A stretch of DNA of 60,997 nucleotides from a virus. Lineage: Duplodnaviria > Caudoviricetes. Both the position numbers and the translations under genes were made by a program. Shown piece after piece: positions 4,371 through 40,280 of this stretch (position 1 is the stretch's first letter; every line of letters starts with the position of its first letter). Location: positions 1 to 60,997 of IMG/VR virus record IMGVR_UViG_3300031565_011186. One strand, 5' to 3'. The notes beneath the pieces were generated by a model that saw only the letters and a list, made by a program, of their open reading frames with translations, was not told where the DNA came from and searched no databases.

Positions 4371-4936
4371 CGACCTTCGAGGAGATGCAGCGCGGCGAAC
4401 TGGACTGGTGGATCGCCTACCTTGGGCACCCCCATGCGGTCAGCCGGATCTTCGCCCTGTACGGCTACCGGTACTTGCCCTTCTTCTTCGAGGAGTTCAA
4501 TCACCTGGGCGAGGTCGTCGACTTCGGGTCAGGGCCGATCAGCGCCGCGTACATCGCTGAGCCGGCGCCGCGGGAGGTGATCTGCGTCGACCCGTTGATG
4601 CCGGAATATCACAAGCACGAACTGGTCTACGGCAGTCCCGTCGTCGAATGGCCGCCCCTGCCCGCCGCCGTCTTCGACACCGCCCTCCTCCTGAACGTCC
4701 TTGACCACTGCGAGGAGCCACAGAATCTCATCCGTGAAGCAGCGCGCAGTCTTGTCGGCGGCGGCGGCGCCCTGGTGTGGAGCCACGTAAACCAGGAGAC
4801 CGACTCGCTTCATCGCACTATTCACGCTGCGGAGATCGCCGGTTGGCTGCAGGAGGCCGGACTGTCGCTGCAGCGAGACGAAGTGAAGACCCACCTGGGA
4901 GTCATGTCCTACATGGCGAAGGCGGTCAAGCAGTGA
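4367..4936 (+). CDS. Class I SAM-dependent methyltransferase
   Basis: VDFGSGP, VDPL, NVLDHC. Confidence 0.85.
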   Translation: MTTFEEMQRGELDWWIAYLGHPHAVSRIFALYGYRYLPFFFEEFNHLGEVVDFGSGPISAAYIAEPAPREVICVDPLMPEYHKHELVYGSPVVEWPPLPAAVFDTALLLNVLDHCEEPQNLIREAARSLVGGGGALVWSHVNQETDSLHRTIHAAEIAGWLQEAGLSLQRDEVKTHLGVMSYMAKAVKQ

Positions 4937-5451
4937 GCGACCGGATCTGGCAGGTCGAACTGGGGTGCGGCCGGCGCAAGGCGGAGGGCTACTTCGGCGT
5001 CGACCGCGTTGCCCTCCCTGGCGTCGACCTCGTGCACAACCTGGAGCAGCGGCCCTGGCCCATGGGTGACTGCTCCGTCCGCCGCCTCATCGCCCACCAG
5101 ACGCTCGAGCACATCGGCGACCTGATCGGCTTCATGGCGGAGGCCTGGCGCGTCTGCCTCGACGGCGCCTGGGTCGAGTTCGTTGTGCCTTTCCACACGG
5201 CACCGACCGCCTGGGGCGACCCGACGCACGTGCGCGCCTTCACCTTCGAGACCTTCAGGTATTTCGAGCCTGGCTTCATCCGGCCCTGGGGTGACTACGG
5301 GATCCGGACGTATTGGCACATCGTCGAGCAGGCCGCCAACCCCCAGGGGAACCTCTGGGTGCTCATGCGGCCGATCAAGTCGTGGGCCTCGCTCATGGCC
5401 CACGCCAGGGAGGCGAGATGGCGCAATCGCAAGCAGAAGATGCTGGGCTGA
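4933..5451 (+). CDS. Class I SAM-dependent methyltransferase (type 11-like)
   Basis: ELGCG, GVDLVHNL, TLEHI, EAWRV, DPTHVR. Confidence 0.9.
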   Translation: MSDRIWQVELGCGRRKAEGYFGVDRVALPGVDLVHNLEQRPWPMGDCSVRRLIAHQTLEHIGDLIGFMAEAWRVCLDGAWVEFVVPFHTAPTAWGDPTHVRAFTFETFRYFEPGFIRPWGDYGIRTYWHIVEQAANPQGNLWVLMRPIKSWASLMAHAREARWRNRKQKMLG

Positions 5452-6552: not shown

Positions 6553-7773
6553 ATGAGGATCTACGTCATAAGCGAGTTGAACCTGAAGGCCGGCAGCGGC
6601 TACACGACCATTACCCGCGGCCTGGCGGCCGAGATGGGCCTCCGCGGCCACGAGGTGAAGATCAGCGCGGTCTGGAACGACGGCGCTGAGCACCGGCTGC
6701 CGGCGACAGTCATGCCCTGCCAGCCAGAGATGTTGCCCGTCCAGGCGCGTCAGGTCTTGGACAACTTCAAACCTCAGGTGATCGTGGGCATCGCCGATAT
6801 CACGAAGCACGTCGAGTGGCAGGCCCTCATGAGCAGCGGCGTCCCGTACATCGGGATCTTCCCGCTGGAGAGCGATCCCCTGGCGCACCCGCACGAGTTC
6901 ACGCGGGTCATCGAACTGATGGCCATGGCGCTGCTCGAGACCGCCTGGGGAACGAAGTTGTGCCAAGACGTCGGCCTGACGGCGCGCCACATACCGATCG
7001 GCATCGACTGCGCCTTCTGGCGGCCGCCACGGGCGGCGGAGCGGCGCGCGGTCAGGGCCCGCATGGACAAGGCTGACGCCTTCGTCGTCCTGACGGTCTG
7101 CGACAGCCACGAACGCAAGAACCTGCCGGCGGCGGTCGCGACCGTCGCGCTCTTCTGCGGCAAGAAGATCGAATGGCCGCCAGGATCCGGCAGGAAGATC
7201 AGTGGCCCCGAGCCCGTCTGGACTGACGCCCAGATGATCATCAACACGAAGCGCCGGCCGGAAAGCGTCGGCTACTCGATGTGGAACCTCGCGGACTACT
7301 TCCACATGCAGAACGAGTTGACCTTCTATCAGCACGACCGCGAGGGCGGCCTCAGTGACGAGCAGTTGCGCGACCTCTACTGGGCGGCCGACGCCTTCCT
7401 GCTGACCAGCAAGGCGGAGGGCCTCGGCCTGCCCGTGATGGAGGCCATGGCGTGCGGCCTGCCCTGCGTCTGTACCGAGACCGGCGGCATGGCTGAGAAC
7501 CTGGCAGATGACCGCGGCTGGCTCATCCCCGCCGAGTACTCGTGCCTGGATCCGTTCGGCAACCAGTACCGGCGATTTGCCGACCCGCAGGCCGCGGCGC
7601 AACTGCTGCAGAACGTGCGGATCCAGCGGGTCGATCGGAAGGCGCGGGTGAGCAAGGCCCTGAGGTGGATCCGGCAACGTACTTGGGCCCGCGCGGCAGA
7701 CGTTCTTGAGGAGGCAATCAATGGGGTCGTCAGCGACACGAAGGAACCGGAGGCGGGCGGATCGGGCGAGTAA
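6553..7773 (+). CDS. GT4-family glycosyltransferase
   Basis: SGY, ERKN, ADAFLLTSKAEGLGLPVMEAMACGLPCV. Confidence 0.92.
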   Translation: MRIYVISELNLKAGSGYTTITRGLAAEMGLRGHEVKISAVWNDGAEHRLPATVMPCQPEMLPVQARQVLDNFKPQVIVGIADITKHVEWQALMSSGVPYIGIFPLESDPLAHPHEFTRVIELMAMALLETAWGTKLCQDVGLTARHIPIGIDCAFWRPPRAAERRAVRARMDKADAFVVLTVCDSHERKNLPAAVATVALFCGKKIEWPPGSGRKISGPEPVWTDAQMIINTKRRPESVGYSMWNLADYFHMQNELTFYQHDREGGLSDEQLRDLYWAADAFLLTSKAEGLGLPVMEAMACGLPCVCTETGGMAENLADDRGWLIPAEYSCLDPFGNQYRRFADPQAAAQLLQNVRIQRVDRKARVSKALRWIRQRTWARAADVLEEAINGVVSDTKEPEAGGSGE

Positions 7774-12047: not shown

Positions 12048-12567
12048 GGTCACTGTCGCGGGTACCGATCACGAGGTGCCGCCCCTGAACGGCGTGGCCG
12101 GTCTGGAGGCGGCGCAGATGCTGATCCCTCACCTGGTGGTGGCGCAGGGCGCTATCGACCGCCTGGCCGTCATCGCCGCCACAGCGCCCGTCGATGAGGC
12201 GGGGAACGTCCAGTTGGGCCAGGTGCAGATCCAGGGCGCGCTCTCGGCTGCAGCCGGTATCGGCGAGGCCATGCTGCCGCTGCTGAAGCCGGACGACTTC
12301 GTTCACCTGACGTCGCTGTTGACGTCCGTGCCGGAGGAGGAACTCCGCAAGGCGACGCTCGGCGAGCTCCTGGACGCCGCTGCGGTCGGTCTGGTGAACG
12401 CCGACATCCGCTCCATCATGGGCGCGACGGGCAAGATCTATCAGGAGATTCTCAGGGGCAGCCGCAACGCGGCACCGGCACCACAGCCCTCCGAGGCCAA
12501 GCAGTTGCAGGAGGAAGCGCAAACCGAGTTCGCCGAGCGGCCGCCCGAGGCTCCGCCCGAGGAGTAA
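12040..12567 (+). CDS. Probable second tail assembly chaperone
   Basis: Helical acidic protein directly upstream of the tape measure gene. Confidence 0.5.
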   Translation: MSKVTVAGTDHEVPPLNGVAGLEAAQMLIPHLVVAQGAIDRLAVIAATAPVDEAGNVQLGQVQIQGALSAAAGIGEAMLPLLKPDDFVHLTSLLTSVPEEELRKATLGELLDAAAVGLVNADIRSIMGATGKIYQEILRGSRNAAPAPQPSEAKQLQEEAQTEFAERPPEAPPEE

Positions 12568-23613: not shown

Positions 23614-23639
23614 TGTCCCTTCTCCCGCGACGCGGCCCG

Positions 23640-23658
23640 TGCTATGATGGCGCCAATG
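23640..23658 (+). promoter_or_regulatory. Extended -10 promoter (TGcTATGAT), leaderless sigma transcript
   Basis: TATGAT at 23643-23648, 7 nt before ATG 23656, no SD. Confidence 0.5.
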
Positions 23659-24180
23659 GAAAATATCGCGGTCGGTGATCTACTGACTTTGCCCGAAGTC
23701 ATCGGCATGATCGAGGCAGCGGCGCGGCGCGCCGGCATCCACGATGGGATCGGCAACCTTGACGAAGAGGACGTGCGGTCAGAACTGACCTGCGTTGCCC
23801 TCGTGGCGGCGCGGGACTTCGACCCGACGTCAAAGGCCCGCTTCACGACCTACCTCTGGCCTCGTCTCCTCGGCGCCACTTACGACCTCCTCCGCCGTCA
23901 CGGCCGGCACAACCGTTCAGGCTACCCCCGCCTGGTGTTGGCGCCCATCGAGGCGGCGGCCTCCGCCTCCATCCCCGAGACTCATCCTGACGACACGATC
24001 GATCTGAATGACGCGATCTCGCGCCTGCCGTCGGCTGAGCGTGTGGCCTTACTGATGCGCGAATACGGACAGCAGCCGGCCACAGCGATCGCGGCCCTTG
24101 TCGGCGGTGACAAGACTTCCGCGCGCCTGCTCTCGCGTCAGGCGGTTCGTCGTCTGCGCGTAGGGCTGGGATCCGATTAG
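23656..24180 (+). CDS. RNA polymerase sigma factor, FliA/WhiG-like region 2 plus region 4
   Basis: DFDPTSKARFTTYLWPRLLGATYDLLR (region 2); LNDAISRLPSAER...IAALVG...QAVRRLR (region 4). Confidence 0.85.
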   Translation: MENIAVGDLLTLPEVIGMIEAAARRAGIHDGIGNLDEEDVRSELTCVALVAARDFDPTSKARFTTYLWPRLLGATYDLLRRHGRHNRSGYPRLVLAPIEAAASASIPETHPDDTIDLNDAISRLPSAERVALLMREYGQQPATAIAALVGGDKTSARLLSRQAVRRLRVGLGSD

Positions 24181-34270: not shown

Positions 34271-34870
34271 ATGGCGGTGCTCCTGGGGCTGATAGTCCTC
34301 AGCAGCGCCTTTCTAGGAGGCAAGACAGATGGATGCCCAACAGATCCTAGTTGTACTCGCAGCGATGATAGCGGCCGCGCTGTCCGGTTCCTTCTTCGCG
34401 GAATACCGGCGGCGCTCCGAACAGCACCGCGAACGCTCCCAAGTCCGACGCCTGACGCGACACCCCTAGAGTTCGTCGCTCCTCCTGCAGCCACGCCGCC
34501 GACGGAACCCCCTGCCACCAGGGCGTCGGCGGCCGGCTATATCTCGGGCCGGCTGACGCACTACGGCGGCGGGCCGGTCTGGGGCGACGCCGTCGACTAT
34601 AACGGCCGCCAGATGGGTTGCCCAGGCGCCGGCCTCTACGATAGTGCCGACCCGACGATCGTCGCGGTCGGCCCCTCCCGCTACGCTGACTGGCCCTGCG
34701 GCACCGCCCTGAGCATCTGCGGGCCTACCGGCTGCCTTACCGCCATCCGTCAGGATGCCTGCCCAGGTTGTGGGCCCTTCCTCGTCGACGGAAGCGAATC
34801 CCTCTTCCGCGCCGTCTGCGGCGCCGGCGCCTCCGGATCCTGCGAGATCTCCATCACCGCCGCCCCATAA
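34271..34870 (+). CDS. Membrane-anchored RlpA-like double-psi beta-barrel protein
   Basis: Hydrophobic N-terminus, Pro/Thr linker, THY...CG...D.CPGC...VD.S..LF; start uncertain (34190 possible). Confidence 0.7.
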   Translation: MAVLLGLIVLSSAFLGGKTDGCPTDPSCTRSDDSGRAVRFLLRGIPAALRTAPRTLPSPTPDATPLEFVAPPAATPPTEPPATRASAAGYISGRLTHYGGGPVWGDAVDYNGRQMGCPGAGLYDSADPTIVAVGPSRYADWPCGTALSICGPTGCLTAIRQDACPGCGPFLVDGSESLFRAVCGAGASGSCEISITAAP

Positions 34871-34946
34871 TCGCCACGGCTGGCCCCCACGGCCCCACTT
34901 TCTTCGAAATAGGTCGAACTTTCTGAGGATTCTCGCGCCACAACCC

Positions 34947-34975
34947 TTGACTTCCATGGCCGTGACGGCTATATT
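34947..34975 (+). promoter_or_regulatory. Early sigma70-type promoter with operator B
   Basis: TTGACT-17-TATATT; GCCGTGACGGC at 34959-34969. Confidence 0.75.
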
Positions 34976-34981
34976 GGACTC

Positions 34982-35267
34982 ATGAAGTGAACCACAGGCG
35001 CGGGGCAGGCCAGCAAAAAACAAGCCCCACGGACACCGGCCGGAGCGAGGGAGCTAACACGGCTCGCCAGGGAACCCGCCCAGGCACGACAGCCCCCAGG
35101 CCCAAAACCCCCAGGGACGGCCGGAGACAAGGAGGGAAGCAGAAAGGCCGGAGACGACCGCGAAGCCTCCCGAGGGCGCCAAGAACGGAAGAGCAAGCGC
35201 GCAAGCGCGGACACGCCGAGAAGCGCCCGAGCAGAAGGAAGCCGAAACGAGGCGGGAACGCCTCGTC
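34982..35267 (+). ncRNA. Candidate U-depleted leader RNA released by hammerhead 1
   Basis: Only 3 T in 34989-35262; bounded by the promoter and the ribozyme cleavage site. Confidence 0.5.
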
Positions 35268-35307
35268 GCCTCAGGGTCACCTCCTGGGGCCTGAGGATGG
35301 CAGGTGA
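35241..35307 (+). ncRNA. Type II hammerhead ribozyme 1
   Basis: GCC-GAAA-C-GAGGCG(GGAA)CGCCTC-GTC-GCCTCAGG(GTCACCT)CCTGGGGC-CTGAGGA-T-GGC; loop TCACCT pairs with downstream AGGTGA (pseudoknot). Confidence 0.88.
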
Positions 35308-35322
35308 ACGAAAGGATGAACG

Positions 35323-35577
35323 ATGGATCTGGCAACGGTAGTCATCGAGGGGACGATGAGGGCGGGGGCCATGTACGTCGCCGAGAAGCACCTGACCATA
35401 GACTTCGCGGCCGTGACCGCGCGGATGCGCGATATCGTCAGGGCCGAGTACGGCGAACTGATGGAGACGTTGAAGGACGCCCTGGACGGCAACATGGGCG
35501 ACGCCATGTACCGCCAGGTCATCAACACCTTCTGCACCTCCTGGGCCATCCGCGCGGTTGATAACAGGGCGCGCTGA
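35323..35577 (+). CDS. Hypothetical 84-aa protein flanked by two hammerheads
   Basis: AAAGGA RBS, genome-like codon usage, stop abuts ribozyme 2. Confidence 0.75.
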   Translation: MDLATVVIEGTMRAGAMYVAEKHLTIDFAAVTARMRDIVRAEYGELMETLKDALDGNMGDAMYRQVINTFCTSWAIRAVDNRAR

Positions 35578-35637
35578 GCCGAAACGCCCGCGAGGGCGTC
35601 CGTCAGGACTGACCGCCTGGCGCCGATGAGGCAGGTC
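35578..35637 (+). ncRNA. Type II hammerhead ribozyme 2 (U4C core variant)
   Basis: GCC-GAAA-C-GCCC(GCGA)GGGC-GTC-CGTCAGG(ACTGACCG)CCTGGCG-CCGATGA-GGC; loop GACC pairs with downstream GGTC. Confidence 0.82.
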
Positions 35638-35658
35638 GAACGAGGAGGGATTGAGACG

Positions 35659-35970
35659 ATGACTGGCCGGAAGTTCAGCAGGGGCAAGGTTCGGCTCGTG
35701 ACCTGCGACGGTTGCGGCAAGCTCACCACGTCGGGAATCGACGGTTGCGTTGGCTTGAATCTCTGCCGCGAGTGCTTCAACGATGTCAACGGAGAGAACG
35801 CGCACAGCGACTATGGCCACGATGAGGCCGTTGCTGGGGGCGACTATTGGCCCAGGGGCTGCGAGAAGTGCAGGGCCGCGGCGGAAGATGCGAAGATCAT
35901 CGCCACGTTCAAAGCTATCAACGCCGCCGACCACAAGCGCGACGCCGAGGAGGCAGGTGAGGGCCGATGA
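35659..35970 (+). CDS. Cys-rich early protein
   Basis: CDGCGKLT...LCREC...ENAHSD..H...CEKC; GAGGAGG RBS. Confidence 0.75.
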   Translation: MTGRKFSRGKVRLVTCDGCGKLTTSGIDGCVGLNLCRECFNDVNGENAHSDYGHDEAVAGGDYWPRGCEKCRAAAEDAKIIATFKAINAADHKRDAEEAGEGR

Positions 35971-36215
35971 CTGACCTCACGCGCGGACAGCAGCAGCAGC
36001 AGAACAACAGGGATCGCGGGACTGGGCGGTACCGGACGGGGAACCGCTGCGACGTTTGCCAAAGGCCGGTGCCTTTCTACGACTACTTCGGCAACGCCGA
36101 CCTGCCCTGTGTCTGCAGCCGGAAGGCCTGCCTGAGGGCACTGCACGAGTCAGACCTGGCGGCCGGCCGGCGCGATGACACCTTCGCGGAGTTCTGGGCG
36201 CTGGTGAGGCGATAG
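35967..36215 (+). CDS. Small zinc-finger protein
   Basis: CDVC...VCSRKAC; coupled start. Confidence 0.65.
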   Translation: MTDLTRGQQQQQNNRDRGTGRYRTGNRCDVCQRPVPFYDYFGNADLPCVCSRKACLRALHESDLAAGRRDDTFAEFWALVRR

Positions 36216-36225
36216 GAGGAAGCAC

Positions 36226-36435
36226 ATGGCCTGGAAGATCGTATTCGAGACGGTAGAGGACGCCATTCGGAGCGCCCGCACCGACCGGCGCTACGGGCAG
36301 AGGATCGCGATAGTCTGCGCCACGAGGCGGGGATATCGCAAGGTAGCCCTAGCGGAGGGACAGGCGGCACGGACGTGTTGGCGGGGCGCTCATCTGGTCT
36401 GCGTGGTGGAGTTAGATGGCACCGTCACGCACTAG
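36226..36435 (+). CDS. Hypothetical protein
   Basis: AGGAGG RBS. Confidence 0.6.
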   Translation: MAWKIVFETVEDAIRSARTDRRYGQRIAIVCATRRGYRKVALAEGQAARTCWRGAHLVCVVELDGTVTH

Positions 36436-36504
36436 GGGCTCCTGCCCCTGGACTCGGCCCTTCGCTGGAGGGGCCGGATGCAGCAGCAGGAGGAGAGAAT
36501 CATG
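36434..36504 (+). promoter_or_regulatory. Repeated structured RNA leader, copy 1
   Basis: AGGGGC-TCCT-GCCCCT hairpin, stem with C(GCTG)G loop, GCAGGAG complementary to CTCCTGC. Confidence 0.65.
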
Positions 36505-37089
36505 TCTACCCCTTACAAGGCAGAAGACGAGCGGGTGCTCAGGGTCAGCATCGAGAGCGCCCAGAAGTCCATGGCCGAGTCCTTCGCCCTCATAGTGAGG
36601 CGCCTGCGCGAAAAGGCCGACGACATTGAGCGGCAGACGATGCGGGCCGTCGAGGCCGGACTGGACGGCGCCCTGGCCGGTGCTTACGTCAACATCGCCG
36701 ACGCGGTGCTGAACGAGATCGAATGGCTCTCCCCGAACCTGCCGGTCAGCCAGATCCAGCGGGAGGCGCGGCGCCTCGTCCAGTACGAGGCCATCCTCCA
36801 GCAGATGGGCGTCCTGGTCACCGACGAGGAGCGCGCTGGCGAGGCCGCCCTGGCCGCGAACCAGGCAATCGTCGACAAGGTGAAGGCCATGATCGAGGCG
36901 GGCGTGCCGGTCAAGGTCAGCGGCAACAGGATCGTAGACGTCGCCGTCGGCGGTTATGGCTACGCAGACCGGCCGATCATGTTCCGGCTGAAGGGCCGCA
37001 AGTACATGCGGACGGCGACGACCGCGGACGTCGAGGAACTGAAGGCGGCCGACAATCCGAGTTATGTATCGCGCCGGTCAGTGAAATAG
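36502..37089 (+). CDS. Hypothetical protein
   Basis: AGGAGG RBS, typical codon usage. Confidence 0.75.
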   Translation: MSTPYKAEDERVLRVSIESAQKSMAESFALIVRRLREKADDIERQTMRAVEAGLDGALAGAYVNIADAVLNEIEWLSPNLPVSQIQREARRLVQYEAILQQMGVLVTDEERAGEAALAANQAIVDKVKAMIEAGVPVKVSGNRIVDVAVGGYGYADRPIMFRLKGRKYMRTATTADVEELKAADNPSYVSRRSVK

Positions 37090-37093
37090 GGAC

Positions 37094-37123
37094 TTGACTT
37101 TCCCTGGCCGTGACGGCTATCGT
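37094..37123 (+). promoter_or_regulatory. Sigma70-type promoter with operator B
   Basis: TTGACT-18-TATCGT; GCCGTGACGGC at 37107-37117. Confidence 0.65.
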
Positions 37124-37135
37124 CACACAGCCAGC

Positions 37136-37204
37136 GGGGGCTCCTTGCCCCTGCGATGGCGACTCGCCGGAGCCGCCGTCGGAGCAGCAAGGAGGAGAGT
37201 GATG
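37136..37204 (+). promoter_or_regulatory. Repeated structured RNA leader, copy 2
   Basis: GGGGGC-TCCTT-GCCCCT, C(GCCG)G loop, GCAAGGAG complementary to CTCCTTGC. Confidence 0.65.
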
Positions 37205-38224
37205 AGCCACGAAGTCGAGAGCATGATGTACACGGACTGGGAAGCGCCCTGGCACGGGCTAGGCGTTCCCGTTCACGAGGCGCCCAACAGCGCCGAGGCC
37301 CTGAAGTTGGCGGGCCTCGACTGGCTGGTGGAGCAGGTGCCGGTCTACGTCGCCTCTGCCGGTAAAGGCAAGGGCGCGCCGGACGTCGAGGTGCCAGGTT
37401 ACAAGGCGGTCAGGCGCGACTCGGACGGGCGGATCTTCACCGTGCGGTCAGAGAACTTCCAGCCGTTTCAGAACCACGAGATGTTCGAGTTCCTCGACGC
37501 GCTCGTGGGCACGGGCGACCTCAAGTTCGACACCGCTGGCAGCCTCTTCGGCGGCAAGAAGGTCTGGGCCCTGGCGCGGACGCCGCAGACGATCAAGATC
37601 GGCGGCACGGACGAGATCCGGCAGTACATCCTGGTGGCGAACGGCCACGACGGGCACACGGCCCTGCAGGCGCTGGCGACCGACGAGCGCGTCGTCTGCC
37701 GCAACACCCTCAACGCCGCCCTGGCGCGCAGCAGGAAGACGAACGGCCTGGAGGTGCGGGTCTACCACAGTAGCAAGCTGGCCGACCACGTCGCGGAGGC
37801 CCGCCGGATCCTGGGCATCGTGAACGTCGAGTTCGAGACCTTCCGCCAGGCGGCCGAGGGGCTCGCGGCCGAGGACGGCATGCCGTACGTCGACAAGCTG
37901 CTCAACGCGATGTTCCCGCCGCCCACGGGCACCAACGCTGCAGCGAAGACAGTCTACGACCAGAAGCGCAGCACCATCGAGGGGCTGGTCAAGGCCGCTG
38001 ACGGGAGCGCCTGGGGCCTCCTGAACGGCATCACGGCCTTTGTCGACCATCGGGTGAGCCGCAGCAAGAAGGACGACGCCTCCAGCCGAAGGATGAACAG
38101 CGTGCTGCTGGGCCCCGACGCCGAGTTCAAGACGCGGGCTGCCCAGACCCTGCTGGACATGACGGGGATCTACGACAGCCTCATGCGCGACCGCGAGGCC
38201 ATGATGGTGCAGGTACGAAAGTAG
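37202..38224 (+). CDS. DUF932-family phage/plasmid protein
   Basis: MSHEVESMMY...PWHGLG, AGLDW.V, TAGSLFGGKKVW, NGHDG, RVVCRNTL, SAWGLLNGIT..DH. Confidence 0.9.
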   Translation: MSHEVESMMYTDWEAPWHGLGVPVHEAPNSAEALKLAGLDWLVEQVPVYVASAGKGKGAPDVEVPGYKAVRRDSDGRIFTVRSENFQPFQNHEMFEFLDALVGTGDLKFDTAGSLFGGKKVWALARTPQTIKIGGTDEIRQYILVANGHDGHTALQALATDERVVCRNTLNAALARSRKTNGLEVRVYHSSKLADHVAEARRILGIVNVEFETFRQAAEGLAAEDGMPYVDKLLNAMFPPPTGTNAAAKTVYDQKRSTIEGLVKAADGSAWGLLNGITAFVDHRVSRSKKDDASSRRMNSVLLGPDAEFKTRAAQTLLDMTGIYDSLMRDREAMMVQVRK

Positions 38225-38240
38225 CGGCGGGCTCTGCCCT

Positions 38241-38289
38241 CCGTGAGCGGGCTGCAGTTTTCTGGGGAAGGTTTGCAGCCCGCTGACGG
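38241..38289 (+). promoter_or_regulatory. Long intergenic hairpin
   Basis: CCGT-G-AGCGGGCTGCA / TGCAGCCCGCT-G-ACGG arms, no U-tract. Confidence 0.6.
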
Positions 38290-38322
38290 GCGGTTAAAGC
38301 AAGACTCACAAGGAGGAACAAG

Positions 38323-38796
38323 ATGATCGAGAAGGGCAGCCTCCAGGTCGGCGACGTCCTGGTGGCCAAGTTCAAGGGCGTGACCTACCACGCATCCGTC
38401 AGGGCGAAGAACGGCGACGGCACGCTGGTCTACGAGGCCATCGACGGCCCCGCGGCCGGCACGGAGTTCAAGACCCCTTCGGCCCTGGGGAAGGTGATCA
38501 CGGGTCACGAGTGCAACGGCTGGGCGTTCTGGAGCATCGAAGGCAAGGAACCTGTGAAGGCCCCGCGCGTCGCGCGCGCCAAGAGCAACCTGGTCGAGCG
38601 GTTCCAGTGCCCCGACTGCACTCACATCTTCCAGACTGCTGCCGCGGCGAAGCGCTGCCTCTGCCAGGGGGCCAAGGCGGCGCGGCTGAGCGGCACGCAC
38701 CTGGAGCCGGTCAGCGTCATGATCGACCCCATGGGGCCGGCCAAGGCGGAGGCCGCGGTCACGGTCACGCGCGAGCCGGCGGAGCCGGCCGCCTAA
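38323..38796 (+). CDS. RAMA-like DNA-binding domain protein with zinc finger
   Basis: L.VGD.L...KG..Y.A...DG...FKTPSA...ITG...NGWAFW; CPDC. Confidence 0.65.
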   Translation: MIEKGSLQVGDVLVAKFKGVTYHASVRAKNGDGTLVYEAIDGPAAGTEFKTPSALGKVITGHECNGWAFWSIEGKEPVKAPRVARAKSNLVERFQCPDCTHIFQTAAAAKRCLCQGAKAARLSGTHLEPVSVMIDPMGPAKAEAAVTVTREPAEPAA

Positions 38797-38802
38797 GCAC
38801 CG

Positions 38803-38877
38803 GAGGGGCTTCCGGCCCCTTCGCCTGCGCCTTCGCGGGAGGGCGCGGACGTCAGCGCCGGAAGGAGGAGCAGCGTG
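38803..38877 (+). promoter_or_regulatory. Repeated structured RNA leader, copy 3
   Basis: GAGGGGC-TTCCG-GCCCCTT, C(GCGG)G loop, GCCGGAAG complementary to CTTCCGGC. Confidence 0.6.
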
Positions 38878-39081
38878 ACCTACAACTACCGATACCAGCA
38901 CTGCAAACCTGAGGACGTGGCGACAGGCGCGCGGATCATCAAAGACGAACTCGGCTGGCAGGACACTGCGGATCCGAAGGAGGCCCTGCAGACCGTCATC
39001 GGCAAAATGATGGATCTGTGTGACCTCATCGCTGCGGTTGCGCCGACAAAGGAGGAATCCGATGGCGGTCTACGAAGGTAA
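38875..39081 (+). CDS. Hypothetical protein
   Basis: AAGGAGG RBS with GTG start. Confidence 0.65.
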   Translation: MTYNYRYQHCKPEDVATGARIIKDELGWQDTADPKEALQTVIGKMMDLCDLIAAVAPTKEESDGGLRR

Positions 39082-39391
39082 ACACGGGCACGACGTCACG
39101 CGCAACGGGATCGCCTTGGACTTGGCGCCCTCCCTGAAGGCCTGGAACCACAGCCCCACGGGATTCTCCTGGGGCTACGGCGGCAGCGGGCCCGCGCAGT
39201 TGGCGCTGGCGCTGCTCCTGGACGCCACGGGCGACGCCGAGCTATCAGTCAGGCTGCACCAGACATTCAAGTGGGCCTTCGTGGCCGGCTGGCCCACAGG
39301 CTGGCGCATCACCTCAGAACGGATTCGGGATTGGGTCGACGAGCGCCGTCCCGCTGACGAGGAGGCCACCGATGCCCAGGATCCAGTATGA
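39062..39391 (+). CDS. DUF6166-like protein
   Basis: NHSPTGFSWGYGGSGPAQLALALL...QTFKWAFVA. Confidence 0.8.
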   Translation: MAVYEGKHGHDVTRNGIALDLAPSLKAWNHSPTGFSWGYGGSGPAQLALALLLDATGDAELSVRLHQTFKWAFVAGWPTGWRITSERIRDWVDERRPADEEATDAQDPV

Positions 39392-40280
39392 AGAGCACGA
39401 GTTCAGGCCGGCGGCGCGGGCCGACATCGCCCGCGCCAACCGGATCCTGGAGGAGTATCAGGCCCAGGGTTTTGACCTCACCCTCCGCCAGCTTTACTAC
39501 CAGTTCATCGCCCGCGGCTGGATCAAGAACGTCGAACGCGAGTACAAGCGCTTGGGTGCGATCATCAACGACGCGCGCCTGGCCGGCCTGATCGACTGGG
39601 ATCGGATCAGTGACCGGACGCGTGAACTCGAAGAGAAGGCCCGCTGGGATGACCCCAGCCACGTTATTCGGGAGGTCGCCCGTCAGTACCGGACGGACGT
39701 CTGGGCCGGCCAAACCTACCGGCCTGAGGTCTGGATCGAGAAGGATGCCCTCGTCGGCGTCATCGCCGGCGTCTGCGAAGTCCTCTCGGTGCCCTACTTC
39801 TCCTGCCGCGGCTACGTTTCCCAGAGTTCAATGTGGGAGGCCGGCCAGCGTCTCGCTGGCTATCAGGATGGCGGTCAGGAAACGATCGTCCTTCACCTGG
39901 GCGACCACGACCCGTCAGGCATCGACATGACCCGCGACATTCAGGCGCGGCTTGACATGTTCGTCGGCAACGTCGAAGTCCGGCGCCTGGCGCTCTCGAT
40001 GGCTCAGGTCAGCGAGTACAAGCCGCCGCCGAACCCTGCCAAGATCACCGACTCGCGCTTCGCTGGCTACCTCGCTGAGTACGGCCGCGAGTCCTGGGAA
40101 CTGGATGCCCTGCAACCTCAGGTCATCGCCGACCTGATCAGGGACGCCATCCAGGGTGATCTGATCGACGAGGAGGAATGGCGGCAGACTCACGACCTGC
40201 AAGAGCGGGGTCGCCGCCTGTTGCAGCGGGCCGCCGGCAGGTGGGGCGAGCTCGTGACCCTCTTGGAGGAGGCCGACTGA
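39372..40280 (+). CDS. Spo11/TopoVIA-like Toprim-domain nuclease
   Basis: TLRQLYY (winged-helix Tyr), VWIEKDA, HLGDHDPSG, ELDAL. Confidence 0.8.
   Translation: MPRIQYEEHEFRPAARADIARANRILEEYQAQGFDLTLRQLYYQFIARGWIKNVEREYKRLGAIINDARLAGLIDWDRISDRTRELEEKARWDDPSHVIREVARQYRTDVWAGQTYRPEVWIEKDALVGVIAGVCEVLSVPYFSCRGYVSQSSMWEAGQRLAGYQDGGQETIVLHLGDHDPSGIDMTRDIQARLDMFVGNVEVRRLALSMAQVSEYKPPPNPAKITDSRFAGYLAEYGRESWELDALQPQVIADLIRDAIQGDLIDEEEWRQTHDLQERGRRLLQRAAGRWGELVTLLEEAD

Follow-up and report, generated by a model that had tools for sequence, protein, structure and literature searches.

Early genes of an uncultured soil phage are separated in several places by a repeated RNA element of 60–70 bases, and this raises the question of what a recurring structure placed at ribosome-binding sites (RBSs) does for the genes around it. 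We analyzed the whole DNA stretch of 60,997 nt from the IMG/VR record IMGVR_UViG_3300031565_011186 (referred to here as the window; genomic G+C content 66%). An initial annotation had described three copies of a motif and suggested a translational switch or a processing site. According to our analysis, a repeated, covarying RNA element at RBSs is real, and its predicted structure and its position indicate that it probably serves as one of these two.

Copies of the Element in the Window

All three copies were present on the + strand (c1, 36435–36501; c2, 37137–37201; c3, 38805–38874), each bounded upstream by a stop codon or a promoter and downstream by the next start codon. In c1, the TAG stop of the upstream ORF (36433–36435) falls within the 5′ strand of hairpin 1 (GGGGC-UCCU-GCCCC, 36435–36448; 8 bp with its flanks, 36432–36451). 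The loop and part of the 3′ strand of this hairpin form the 5′ strand of a lower stem (CUCCUGC, 36439–36445), which is followed by the 2 × 2 internal loop CC/CA (36446–36447 and 36484–36485), the upper stem including hairpin 2 (36448–36483, loop GCUG at 36464–36467), the 3′ strand of the lower stem (GCAGGAG, 36486–36492), and the ATG start codon at 36502. The second copy has hairpin 1 at 37137–37151 (GGGGC-UCCUU-GCCCC), lower-stem strands at 37141–37148 (CUCCUUGC) and 37187–37194 (GCAAGGAG), and an upper stem with hairpin 2 at 37151–37184 (12 bp with one A.C mismatch, loop GCCG at 37166–37169, internal loop CC/CA); the ATG at 37202 opens a DUF932 gene. The third copy, preceded by a TAA stop at 38794–38796, has hairpin 1 at 38805–38819 (GGGGC-UUCCG-GCCCC; 10 bp in its extended form, 38801–38823), lower-stem strands at 38809–38816 (CUUCCGGC) and 38857–38864 (GCCGGAAG), an upper stem with hairpin 2 at 38819–38855 (10 bp, loop GCGG at 38835–38838) and the GTG start codon at 38875. 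As had been proposed, the two lower-stem strands are exact Watson–Crick complements in every window copy, and the 3′ strand overlaps the Shine–Dalgarno (SD) sequence GGAGGAG in c1 (36489–36495) and c2 (37191–37197) and abuts it in c3 (38864–38870). Among the window copies, only c2 has a promoter-like site upstream: the sigma-70-like promoter P2 (TTGACT-18-TATCGT, 37094–37123, + strand) lies just 5′ of it and has a twin, P1, at 34947–34975 (two such promoters found vs. 0.4 expected).

The joint pattern of the motif matched three times in the window, and none of 100 dinucleotide shuffles gave any match. Each half of the pattern taken alone is at chance level (GGGGC-N3-7-GCCCC, 4 matches vs. 2.44 expected; YTCGCNGGAG, 4 vs. 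3.78), and the bare architecture, i.e., a GGGG..CCCC hairpin with a 7-nt complement within 75 nt, gave about 7 match lines against a shuffle mean of 9.3. The bare architecture is not rare, and therefore the significance of the element rests on the shared sequence, the shared position and covariation. A covariance model seeded with the three window copies scored them at 88.1, 81.9, and 74.5 bits; the next-best score in the window was 15.0 bits, for the reverse complement of c3.

Copies in Other Phages

In a search of 104,654 nt from 5 sources at E ≤ 0.001, the model recovered seven non-seed copies, located in four other uncultured phage records: two in L208 (62.2 and 30.8 bits), one each in L181 (46.5) and L183 (32.0), and three in L025 (32.9, 32.5, and 23.2). 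A further long hairpin of L025 (L025_A, 12182–12285, − strand) is arranged differently and was excluded from all counts. The sequence was found in soil and sediment DNA sequencing runs, with no RNA run among those listed. Neither blastn against GenBank phages nor tblastn with the 195-aa protein as the query gave a match; relatives of the DUF932 protein were all below 60% identity, and a separate search for related loci with this protein confirmed none.

Pattern scans were of low yield. One scan returned 42 loci, of which a single one (L025) was true, another returned only a locus of L025, and a further one gave three true loci (L181, L182, and L186) out of 16. Nine loci of another scan were all dismissed on inspection, as were the seven unconvincing loci of a genome scan; a metagenome scan gave at least 118 stretches, two of which passed a loose structural filter and were judged to be chance matches. 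Model matches of 19–30 bits in pattern-preselected loci were also inspected and rejected, along with L180 and with L174, a locus of a Chloroflexota MAG that scored 30.1 bits but has neither the long hairpin nor the start-codon context.

Two Mutually Exclusive Folds and Their Covariation

The computed structures offer two mutually exclusive folds. Fold A consists of hairpin 1, in which the G-run pairs with the C-run over 6–10 bp, and hairpin 2, and leaves the RBS free. Fold B is a single long interrupted hairpin of about 21–25 bp; its lower stem (7–10 bp) pairs the loop and 3′ strand of hairpin 1 with the purine segment at or abutting the SD, and the upper stem (14–17 nt per side), set off from it by a small internal loop with the sequence CC/CA or CU/UA, ends in a tetraloop (G-Y-N-G in 8 of the 10 model-aligned copies). 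The initial annotation had left the choice between two competing folds and a pseudoknot. The mutually exclusive pairings of hairpin 1 and the lower stem were borne out; the geometry speaks against the pseudoknot. The loop of hairpin 1 has only 3–5 nt in the longest form of the hairpin, and the long-range helix takes every loop base together with 2–4 bases of the 3′ strand, so that no connecting loop is left for an H-type pseudoknot. Since hairpin 1 is conserved yet incompatible with the lower stem, competing folds fit better, and the minimum-free-energy fold of c1 and c2 is indeed one long interrupted hairpin. The preQ1-II riboswitch is an SD-sequestering H-type pseudoknot in which a hairpin loop pairs with an SD-bearing 3′ segment and an extra hairpin is inserted between them; the element differs from it in having a loop whose length does not allow a pseudoknot as long as hairpin 1 is intact, no evident ligand pocket, no Rfam match, and three copies that precede unrelated phage genes.

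Analysis with the covariance model confirmed covariation in the homologs: in hairpin 2, all eight pairs change on both sides, with 94.7% of the cells paired. Over the whole structure, 96.8% of the cells are paired vs. 73.7 ± 3.1 in shuffles (none of 500 reached 96.8%), and the proportion falls to 42–57% when the partners are slid out of place. The lower stem has 7–9 contiguous Watson–Crick pairs in 9 of the 11 copies. Because MAFFT left hairpin 2 out of register, the lower-stem table was compiled by hand in a script; its six copies contain one mismatch in 51 cells, with both-sided changes or matched indels at four columns. The compensatory changes claimed for the long-range pairing were thus recovered as matched substitutions and indels, and the lower stems track loop changes and indels across five different sequence versions. 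G.U pairs appear in the + strand reading only, and therefore the structure is one of RNA, not of DNA. In the c3 orthologue of the related phage G001, hairpin 1, the linker and the lower-stem strands are identical to those of c3, and in hairpin 2 four of the eight pairs are changed on both sides and one on a single side; the geometry was kept while the sequence was replaced.

Since pyrimidines prevail in one strand and purines in the other, the lower-stem complementarity of a single copy is only moderately improbable: with shuffled tails, the observed length was reached in 8 to 126 of 1000 trials for six clean copies, whereas the two irregular copies gave about 500 such trials of 1000. Due to the same bias, a cross-pairing matrix with G.U pairs allowed was uninformative, and the Watson–Crick-only version was used, in which cognate strands pair over a mean of 7.6 bp vs. 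5.4 bp for non-cognate ones. The ease of such chance pairing would suit a passive role of the hairpins, which would stabilize the 3′ end of the upstream gene or terminate it without a U-tract and would be conserved boundary sequences for cassette recombination, with the SD complementarity as a by-product of composition. Two observations agree with this explanation: in relatives on metagenome contigs, genes are replaced with joints that coincide with the borders of the motif (36199→36434 and 38867/38871→39063, plus one loose end after 36495), and L181 has a similar hairpin where an operon ends, in front of a promoter. We nevertheless regard it as unlikely, given the excess of cognate pairing, the all-Watson–Crick lower stems that follow the loop changes, and the position of c2 downstream of a promoter. 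Moreover, an intrinsic-terminator test found three terminator-like sites in 34700–39300, none of them at a motif copy; no U-tract follows any copy, and only 1–2 U stand directly after hairpin 1. T4-type phages carry PeSL cassettes, composed of a promoter and a terminator-like stem-loop, between small early genes (PMC2839356, PMC4122927). As far as the available text of these reports goes, the gain, loss and replacement of genes at the cassette borders resemble the situation here, whereas the element has a promoter at c2 only, lacks a U-tract and pairs with the RBS.

Possible Translational Switch or Protein-Binding Site

A translational switch working without cleavage, in which the long hairpin would mask the RBS at least partly and hairpin 1 would be the anti-sequestering alternative, is the main rival of the processing site proposed below, although we hold it to be doubtful. 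Its balance might be set by the terminating upstream ribosome, by the order of co-transcriptional folding or by the relative stability of the folds, and each gene would get its own translation level. Both mutually exclusive helices are conserved, and one of them includes the SD; hairpin 1 forms 6–10 bp in all 11 copies with flanking pairs of differing sequence, and in nine of them the lower stem reaches up to or into the SD with its 3′ strand. In 10 of the 11 copies, the upstream stop codon is part of the 5′ strand of hairpin 1 or at most 9 nt away from that strand, so that a terminating ribosome must melt hairpin 1. The predicted energy gap between the folds ranges from −12 to +5 kcal/mol by copy, as gene-specific tuning predicts: fold B is the predicted ground state in four of the six copies tested, by 6 to 12 kcal/mol, and the two folds of c1 are within 1 kcal/mol of each other. 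For the copies in L181 and L183, too, fold B is the one of minimum energy. On the other hand, a conserved upper stem of such length with fixed mismatch positions is not required for masking, c2 is located in a 5′ UTR close behind a promoter and is separated from the nearest upstream stop by about 50 nt, and the fold favored by a terminating ribosome would change to the opposite one between copies that differ in the distance from stop to hairpin. The predicted accessibility of the SD is not that of a sequestered site either: in an equilibrium prediction only, the mean P(unpaired) over −14..−4 is 0.40, 0.37, and 0.55 for the three motif genes, which is ordinary compared with the median of 0.44 over 52 window genes.

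It is improbable that the element is an operator for a trans-acting RNA-binding protein of the phage or its host that would read capped hairpin 2 or hairpin 1 and jointly shut off or activate the early gene set. The recurrent G-Y-N-G tetraloop of hairpin 2 would be in line with such recognition, as would the core GGGGC..GCCCC of hairpin 1, which is near-invariant across phages with completely different hairpin 2; the invariance of this core is, however, explained by its double pairing duty and its complementarity to the SD. The cap had been described as always YTC-GCNG-GAG. This holds for the three window copies and for one of the seven elsewhere (L025_D). The closing pairs are changed in the remaining six, four of which also deviate in the loop (GUGG in two cases, ACCG, and UGAU); among the orthologues upstream of DUF932, the closing pairs and the loop differ as well (GCCG, ACCG, and UGAU). 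The related suggestion of a shared protein titrated by a T-poor RNA found no support, as GCCGGAG occurs 39 times in the window, at chance level (31.3 ± 5.0 expected), the exact heptamer is present in c2 only, and the cap is not conserved in the copies of related phages. A Pfam scan of the 68 window proteins recognized no nuclease or RNA-binding domain.

Comparison With Known RNA Elements

A scan of 34500–39500 against Rfam 15 gave only two Hammerhead_II matches upstream of the copies and two chance-level ones (mir-2066 on the strand opposite c1, 22.5 bits vs. a cutoff of 100, and HCV_SL8670). The element itself had no Rfam match even at E ≤ 10, in agreement with the initial view that it belongs to no known family. 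The two type II hammerheads occupy the first and second stop-to-start slots of the same operon on the + strand (35240–35309, 37.2 bits with the Rfam model, gathering score 37; 35577–35640, 45.8 bits), gene junctions equivalent to those of c1–c3 and upstream of them; the core of the second is CCGAUGA, not CUGAUGA.

The shared slot, the structured, conserved and pseudoknot-capable layout and the fact that new ribozyme classes have turned up beside known ones could suggest a new self-cleaving ribozyme class replacing the hammerheads at later junctions. We consider this very unlikely. The element has no conserved unpaired core, and its invariant G-run, C-run and anti-SD/SD bases are all paired in at least one of the two folds. 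No CUGANGA/GAAA core motifs of hammerheads were found in c1–c3, and at E ≤ 10 neither the hammerhead models nor those of the pistol, twister, twister-sister, hatchet and HDV-like ribozymes matched; in pistol, the helix order also differs from that of the element (hairpin, hairpin, then pseudoknot strand).

Another repeat of phage RBSs is the start-associated sequence (SAS; extended form, ESAS) of Cluster K mycobacteriophages, which occurs in 11–19 copies per genome. It includes the SD and directly precedes the start codon in some of the non-structural genes; about half of the SAS have, immediately 5′ of them, an imperfect inverted repeat whose arms are separated by a short spacer, and the role is thought to be translational (PMC3203893). 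The available text of that report describes no competing G-run hairpin or long-range SD pairing like those of the element. The 13-nt SAS consensus GGGATAGGAGCCC was not present on the sense strand 3–8 nt 5′ of starts, and the window contains 18 matches at ≤3 mismatches vs. 28.4 expected. A resemblance, with 2 mismatches, is confined to the reverse complement of hairpin 1; both matches within the motif fall there, on the opposite strand, against a chance-level background.

Proposed Intercistronic Processing

Among phages, T7 has RNase III processing signals between its early genes, and SP82 early mRNA carries homologous hairpins cut by Bacillus RNase III. The sites are related interrupted hairpins of about two helical turns, with an internal loop between the upper and lower stems, situated between cistrons of an early polycistronic transcript; after cleavage, the hairpin stays on the 3′ end of the upstream message, and a downstream RBS is sometimes freed. 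The element is alike in layout and shares no sequence similarity with them. It has, in addition, a conserved G-run able to steal one strand of the lower stem by forming hairpin 1; to our knowledge, the T7 and SP82 sites are without such a run.

The explanation that we favor, while giving it somewhat less than an even chance, is an RNase III-type intercistronic processing site that also masks the RBS, in which cleavage is purely what we infer. Each copy would then be a cis-acting RNA module at a junction of genes in the early + strand operon. Fold B would be recognized by an endoribonuclease with specificity for double strands, such as RNase III of the host, the cut of which would split the polycistronic early message between genes. 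Afterward, the G-run would re-form hairpin 1 and displace the SD-bearing strand, so that the upstream message would be left with two protective 3′ hairpins and the downstream message would begin with an unmasked RBS. At the two preceding junctions, the hammerheads would do the same job through self-cleavage.

The shape of an RNase III signal, namely an intercistronic or 5′ UTR hairpin with interruptions and at least about 20 bp, was seen in c1, c2, L025_B/C/D, L181, and L183; c3 is less regular. That two type II hammerheads recognized by Rfam fill stop-to-start slots of the same kind in this operon also argues for processing, as does the predicted preference for fold B in four of the six copies tested. 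Arrays of hammerheads flanking prophage genes have been interpreted in terms of polycistronic RNA processing, and the available text of that report proposes a similar cutting of long phage transcripts into gene-length mRNAs (PMC3088659). Besides its stop-to-start slots in the same operon, the element has in common with hammerheads a layout of two hairpins with a 3′ tail complementary to a hairpin loop; the partner of the tail is the first hairpin's loop in the element, and the stem I loop in hammerheads. In related phages, the cores of hammerhead-like elements are non-canonical, which makes cleavage at every junction insecure even for those. Counting against the processing site are also the prediction for c3, in which fold A is favored by 5 kcal/mol, the balanced folds of c1, the ordinary predicted SD accessibility, the modest improbability of the lower stem in single copies, the negative Pfam scan for nuclease and RNA-binding domains, the five core pairs of hairpin 1, which show no covariation, and two of the 11 copies (L025_D and L181_c2), in which the 3′ strand of the lower stem lies 12–25 nt upstream of the SD.

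It is very unlikely that the element is a dedicated RNA-cleavage module, either a new ribozyme class or the substrate of a loop-measuring nuclease, that arose as a lineage-specific successor of the hammerheads; the nuclease would cut the conserved internal loop 13–16 bp from the G-Y-N-G tetraloop, and the G-run would act as a strand displacer releasing the RBS after the cut.

Implications and a Possible Fourth Copy

The element matches no described RNA family; it is a candidate addition to RNA family libraries and may improve the annotation of phage intergenic regions. It is short, modular and portable between unrelated genes. If the processing reading is right, the early operon of these uncultured soil and sediment phages consists of genes split by interchangeable RNA modules, with hammerheads at some junctions and a two-state hairpin at others. 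It would thus provide a natural side-by-side comparison of ribozyme control of cistrons with control by a host nuclease (or by structure only). The three-strand design (the G-run, the C-run with the anti-SD, and the SD strand) is open to compensatory mutants.

One more structure of the window deserves mention here. The intergenic hairpin ig4 (38225–38322, + strand), missed by the covariance model from the three window copies (5.5 bits), consists of a small GGGC-UCU-GCCC hairpin followed by a 16-bp hairpin. It may be a degenerate fourth copy; the related phage G001 has a true copy of the motif at the equivalent junction.

Structure and reality of the RNA motif

The three copies of the motif described in the initial annotation are present on the + strand of the window, at 36435–36501 (c1), 37137–37201 (c2) and 38805–38874 (c3), upstream of gene starts at 36502, 37202 and 38875. 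Each has a GGGGC..GCCCC hairpin (hairpin 1) followed by a capped stem (hairpin 2). Each of two sequence signatures, taken alone, occurs in the window at chance frequency; the joint pattern occurs three times, and in none of 100 shuffles. A covariance model (R1), seeded with c1–c3, built on hairpins 1 and 2 and run without filters, scored these copies at 88.1, 81.9 and 74.5 bits, the next-best place in the window reaching 15.0 bits. The motif had not been recognized as a known family, and indeed it has no Rfam match even at E ≤ 10; no description of it was found in Rfam 15 or in the literature on analogous systems, which was searched by analogue. The motif is a real, small structured-RNA family in uncultured phages and, on these two sources, an undescribed one.

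In most pattern scans of public collections the matches listed proved on checking to be due to chance, and three scans gave true members, all in other uncultured phage records: L025; L181, L182 and L183; and L186 (extended as L208, in record G001). In the records of these relatives R1 found seven non-seed copies at E ≤ 0.001, and one further irregular copy was recognized by eye (L181, 2547–2641). The tally is 11 copies in five records, including the window (L182 repeats L181).

The claim of covariation was borne out for hairpin 2: in an R1-fitted alignment of 10 copies, one thus adjusted to the very structure being tested, both-sided changes occur at 8/8 pairs and 94.7% of cells are paired. 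For the whole structure, 96.8% of cells are paired, vs 73.7 ± 3.1% in shuffles (0/500 reach the observed value) and 42–57% with slid partners. The G001 orthologue of c3 is identical to c3 in hairpin 1, the linker and the lower-stem strands, and its hairpin 2 differs by both-sided changes at four of eight pairs and a one-sided change at one. The five core pairs of hairpin 1 show no covariation in the R1-fitted alignment; a G-run/C-run hairpin of 6–10 bp can form in all 11 copies, with flanking pairs that differ in sequence.

The YUC-GCNG-GAG cap, initially taken as constant, is seen only in the window copies and in one copy from L025 (L025_D); the remaining copies have other closing pairs, with the loops GCGG, GUGG, ACCG and UGAU. 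The related heptamer GCCGGAG, supposed to connect the motif with a T-poor RNA, occurs 39 times in the window vs 31.3 ± 5.0 expected, and Pfam recognized no RNA-binding or nuclease domain among the 68 window proteins. The proposal that the motif and the T-poor RNA share a binding protein, which the latter titrates, is therefore without support. More generally, we regard a role of the motif as an operator for a protein as improbable.

Mutually exclusive folds

The loop and 3′ strand of hairpin 1 can also pair with a purine segment overlapping or just 5′ of the Shine-Dalgarno sequence, forming a lower stem. The compensatory changes reported initially for this pairing were confirmed: the versions CUCCUGC/GCAGGAG, CUCCUUGC/GCAAGGAG, CUUCCGGC/GCCGGAAG, CCUUCUGC/GCAGAAGG, CUCCUGCCC/GGGCAGGAG and CUCCUGUCC/GGACAGGAG are all Watson-Crick, with length changes matched on both strands; L025_D and L181_c2 have irregular lower stems. 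Chance pairing is easy here because one strand is pyrimidine-rich and the other purine-rich: shuffled 3′ tails gave a Watson-Crick stem as long as the real one in 126, 47, 50, 8, 9 and 14 per 1000 cases for six clean copies, and in 475 and 503 per 1000 for the two irregular ones. Cognate strands pair over 7.6 bp on average vs 5.4 bp for non-cognate strands (n = 56, maximum 9). The bare architecture, a GGGG..CCCC hairpin with a nearby complement, is common in the window genome.

Together with an extended hairpin 2, the lower stem (7–10 bp) makes a single long interrupted hairpin whose upper stem has 14–17 nt per side. A 2×2 internal loop follows the lower stem (CC/CA in four of the six tabulated copies, CU/UA in L025_D), and a 1×1 mismatch lies at upper-stem position 13 in five of the six. 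For c1, c2, L025_B/C/D, L181 and L183, the long hairpin is the fold of lowest energy.

Hairpin 1 and the lower stem cannot coexist, because both use the same bases, and the hairpin-1 loop of 3–5 nt is wholly taken by the lower stem, leaving no connecting loop for an H-type pseudoknot. Of the competing folds or pseudoknot first suggested, the former thus fit better, and we read the motif as a two-state RNA on the basis of geometry. Constrained folding of six copies gave, for hairpins 1 + 2 and for the long hairpin, respectively, −40.3 and −39.3 kcal/mol (c1), −29.5 and −39.9 (c2), −44.8 and −39.8 (c3), −40.1 and −46.5 (L025_B), −40.6 and −48.5 (L025_C), and −26.3 and −37.9 (L025_D). The predicted Shine-Dalgarno accessibility of the three motif-led genes (0.40, 0.37 and 0.55) is ordinary vs the median of 0.44 over 52 genes. 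Control of translation by this two-state RNA without any cleavage is the main alternative to the processing signal discussed below, and a possible though somewhat unlikely one.

Position in the early operon

The window, a complete IMG/VR virus record of 60,997 bp, has a G+C content of 66%, nearly all genes on the + strand, and tail, lysis, SbcCD-like and methylase genes (Pfam). A new + strand unit starts at the sigma-70-like promoter P1 (34947–34975), which has a twin, P2 (37094–37123, +); both carry CTTGACTT..GGCCGTGACGGCTAT, and a scan of 34700–39300 gave two promoter-like sites vs 0.4 expected. A sigma-70-like protein is encoded by the phage itself at 23614–24177 (+; region 2, E = 9.5e-6; region 4 weak). 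Downstream of P1, the leader at 34985–35240 (+) contains 1.6% T over 256 nt vs 15.4% genome-wide, and GGCCGGAG three times within 35038–35153. Small genes with structured spacers follow: two hammerheads, then c1–c3, plus a hairpin of another type at 38225–38322.

The hammerheads (Rfam Hammerhead_II, gathering score 37) occupy the first and second gene junctions of the operon, at 35240–35309 (+, 37.2 bits) and 35577–35640 (+, 45.8 bits); the latter has CCGAUGA in place of the core consensus CUGAUGA. They and the motif fill the same kind of stop-to-start slot. That the motif is itself a new ribozyme seems to us very unlikely. For 10 of the 11 copies, hairpin 1 has the stop codon of the preceding gene inside its 5′ strand or at most 9 nt from it, the exception being c2, which follows P2 instead of a nearby upstream stop. 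No copy has a U-tract.

In metagenome relatives (contigs of runs X7 and X8), the small genes at 36226–36435 and 38875–39081 are replaced or missing, with joints at the c1 and c3 borders: 36199→36434 with an insert of 42 other letters, another gene beyond 36495, and 38867/38871→39063. The motif therefore behaves as a portable junction module. We give little credence to its being only a passive stabilizer or recombination cassette. In G001 (L208, −, reverse-complement ~6838–6990), the 5′ half of a type II hammerhead (AGCCGAAAC) runs straight into a hairpin near-identical to c1 hairpin 1 plus the UGGAC linker of c1, with no CUGANGA core after it, which suggests that hammerheads and the motif have recombined at this hairpin.

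Relatives and spread

No close relative was found among GenBank phages. Related to the window phage but diverged from it (67–89% identity in pieces), the phages of G001, L183 and L181 have in common with it the promoter type, the T-poor leader and several early genes. A similar promoter lies in L181 (~4988–5016) and in G001. The leader behind this type of promoter is T-poor in G001 (6% T over 300 nt) and, as judged by eye, in L183 too. The motif precedes a DUF932 gene in all three lineages showing that gene (window c2, L181 3264 and L183 6789), and G001 has a true copy at the position of the window hairpin 38225–38322. No protein common to L025 and the window was detectable, so the element passes from phage to phage where nothing else relates them.

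Several other structures were also observed in these records. Hammerhead-like sequences with non-canonical cores occur in L181 and L183: the one in L181 (1936–2004, +) reaches 33.7 bits, short of the gathering score, with CCGAUGA and a cleavage triplet lacking U; the two in L183 (~4960–5015 and 5225–5275, +), seen by eye, have no Rfam match at E ≤ 1. At 4866–4990 (+) in L181, a hairpin-1-like hairpin (GGGGGGCUCCGGCCCCC) and a long hairpin end the operon just upstream of the next promoter, with no start codon downstream. In G001, a tRNA match (L208 5808–5877, −; 34.7 bits, gathering score 29) lies on the operon strand upstream of the early promoter.

Possible function and known analogues

In its proposed working, the motif most resembles the early RNase III sites of T7 and SP82. 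It is also similar to the prophage hammerhead arrays (PMC3088659), and its genomic habit recalls that of the SAS/ESAS repeats of Cluster K mycobacteriophages (PMC3203893) and of the PeSL cassettes of T4-type phages. The defining tests of every testable named family gave negative results.

Our leading but tentative reading, held at somewhat less than even confidence, is an RNase III-type intercistronic processing signal, with a lower stem that would cover the ribosome-binding site. The cut would fall between genes, within the motif; the G-run would then re-form hairpin 1, and this strand displacement may free the Shine-Dalgarno strand, while the 3′ end of the upstream message would keep two hairpins.

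The reverse complement of hairpin 1 (36436–36448 and 37138–37150, −) matches the Cluster K SAS consensus at two mismatches, a resemblance that is probably trivial (GGG..AGGAG..CCC). In a Chloroflexota MAG chromosome (L174 6822–6893, −), a 22-nt stretch matches c3 hairpin 1 followed by the c1 linker (R1, 30.1 bits); it lies in a different context, a convergent gene end, and may be a chance match, a terminator or a remnant of a phage.
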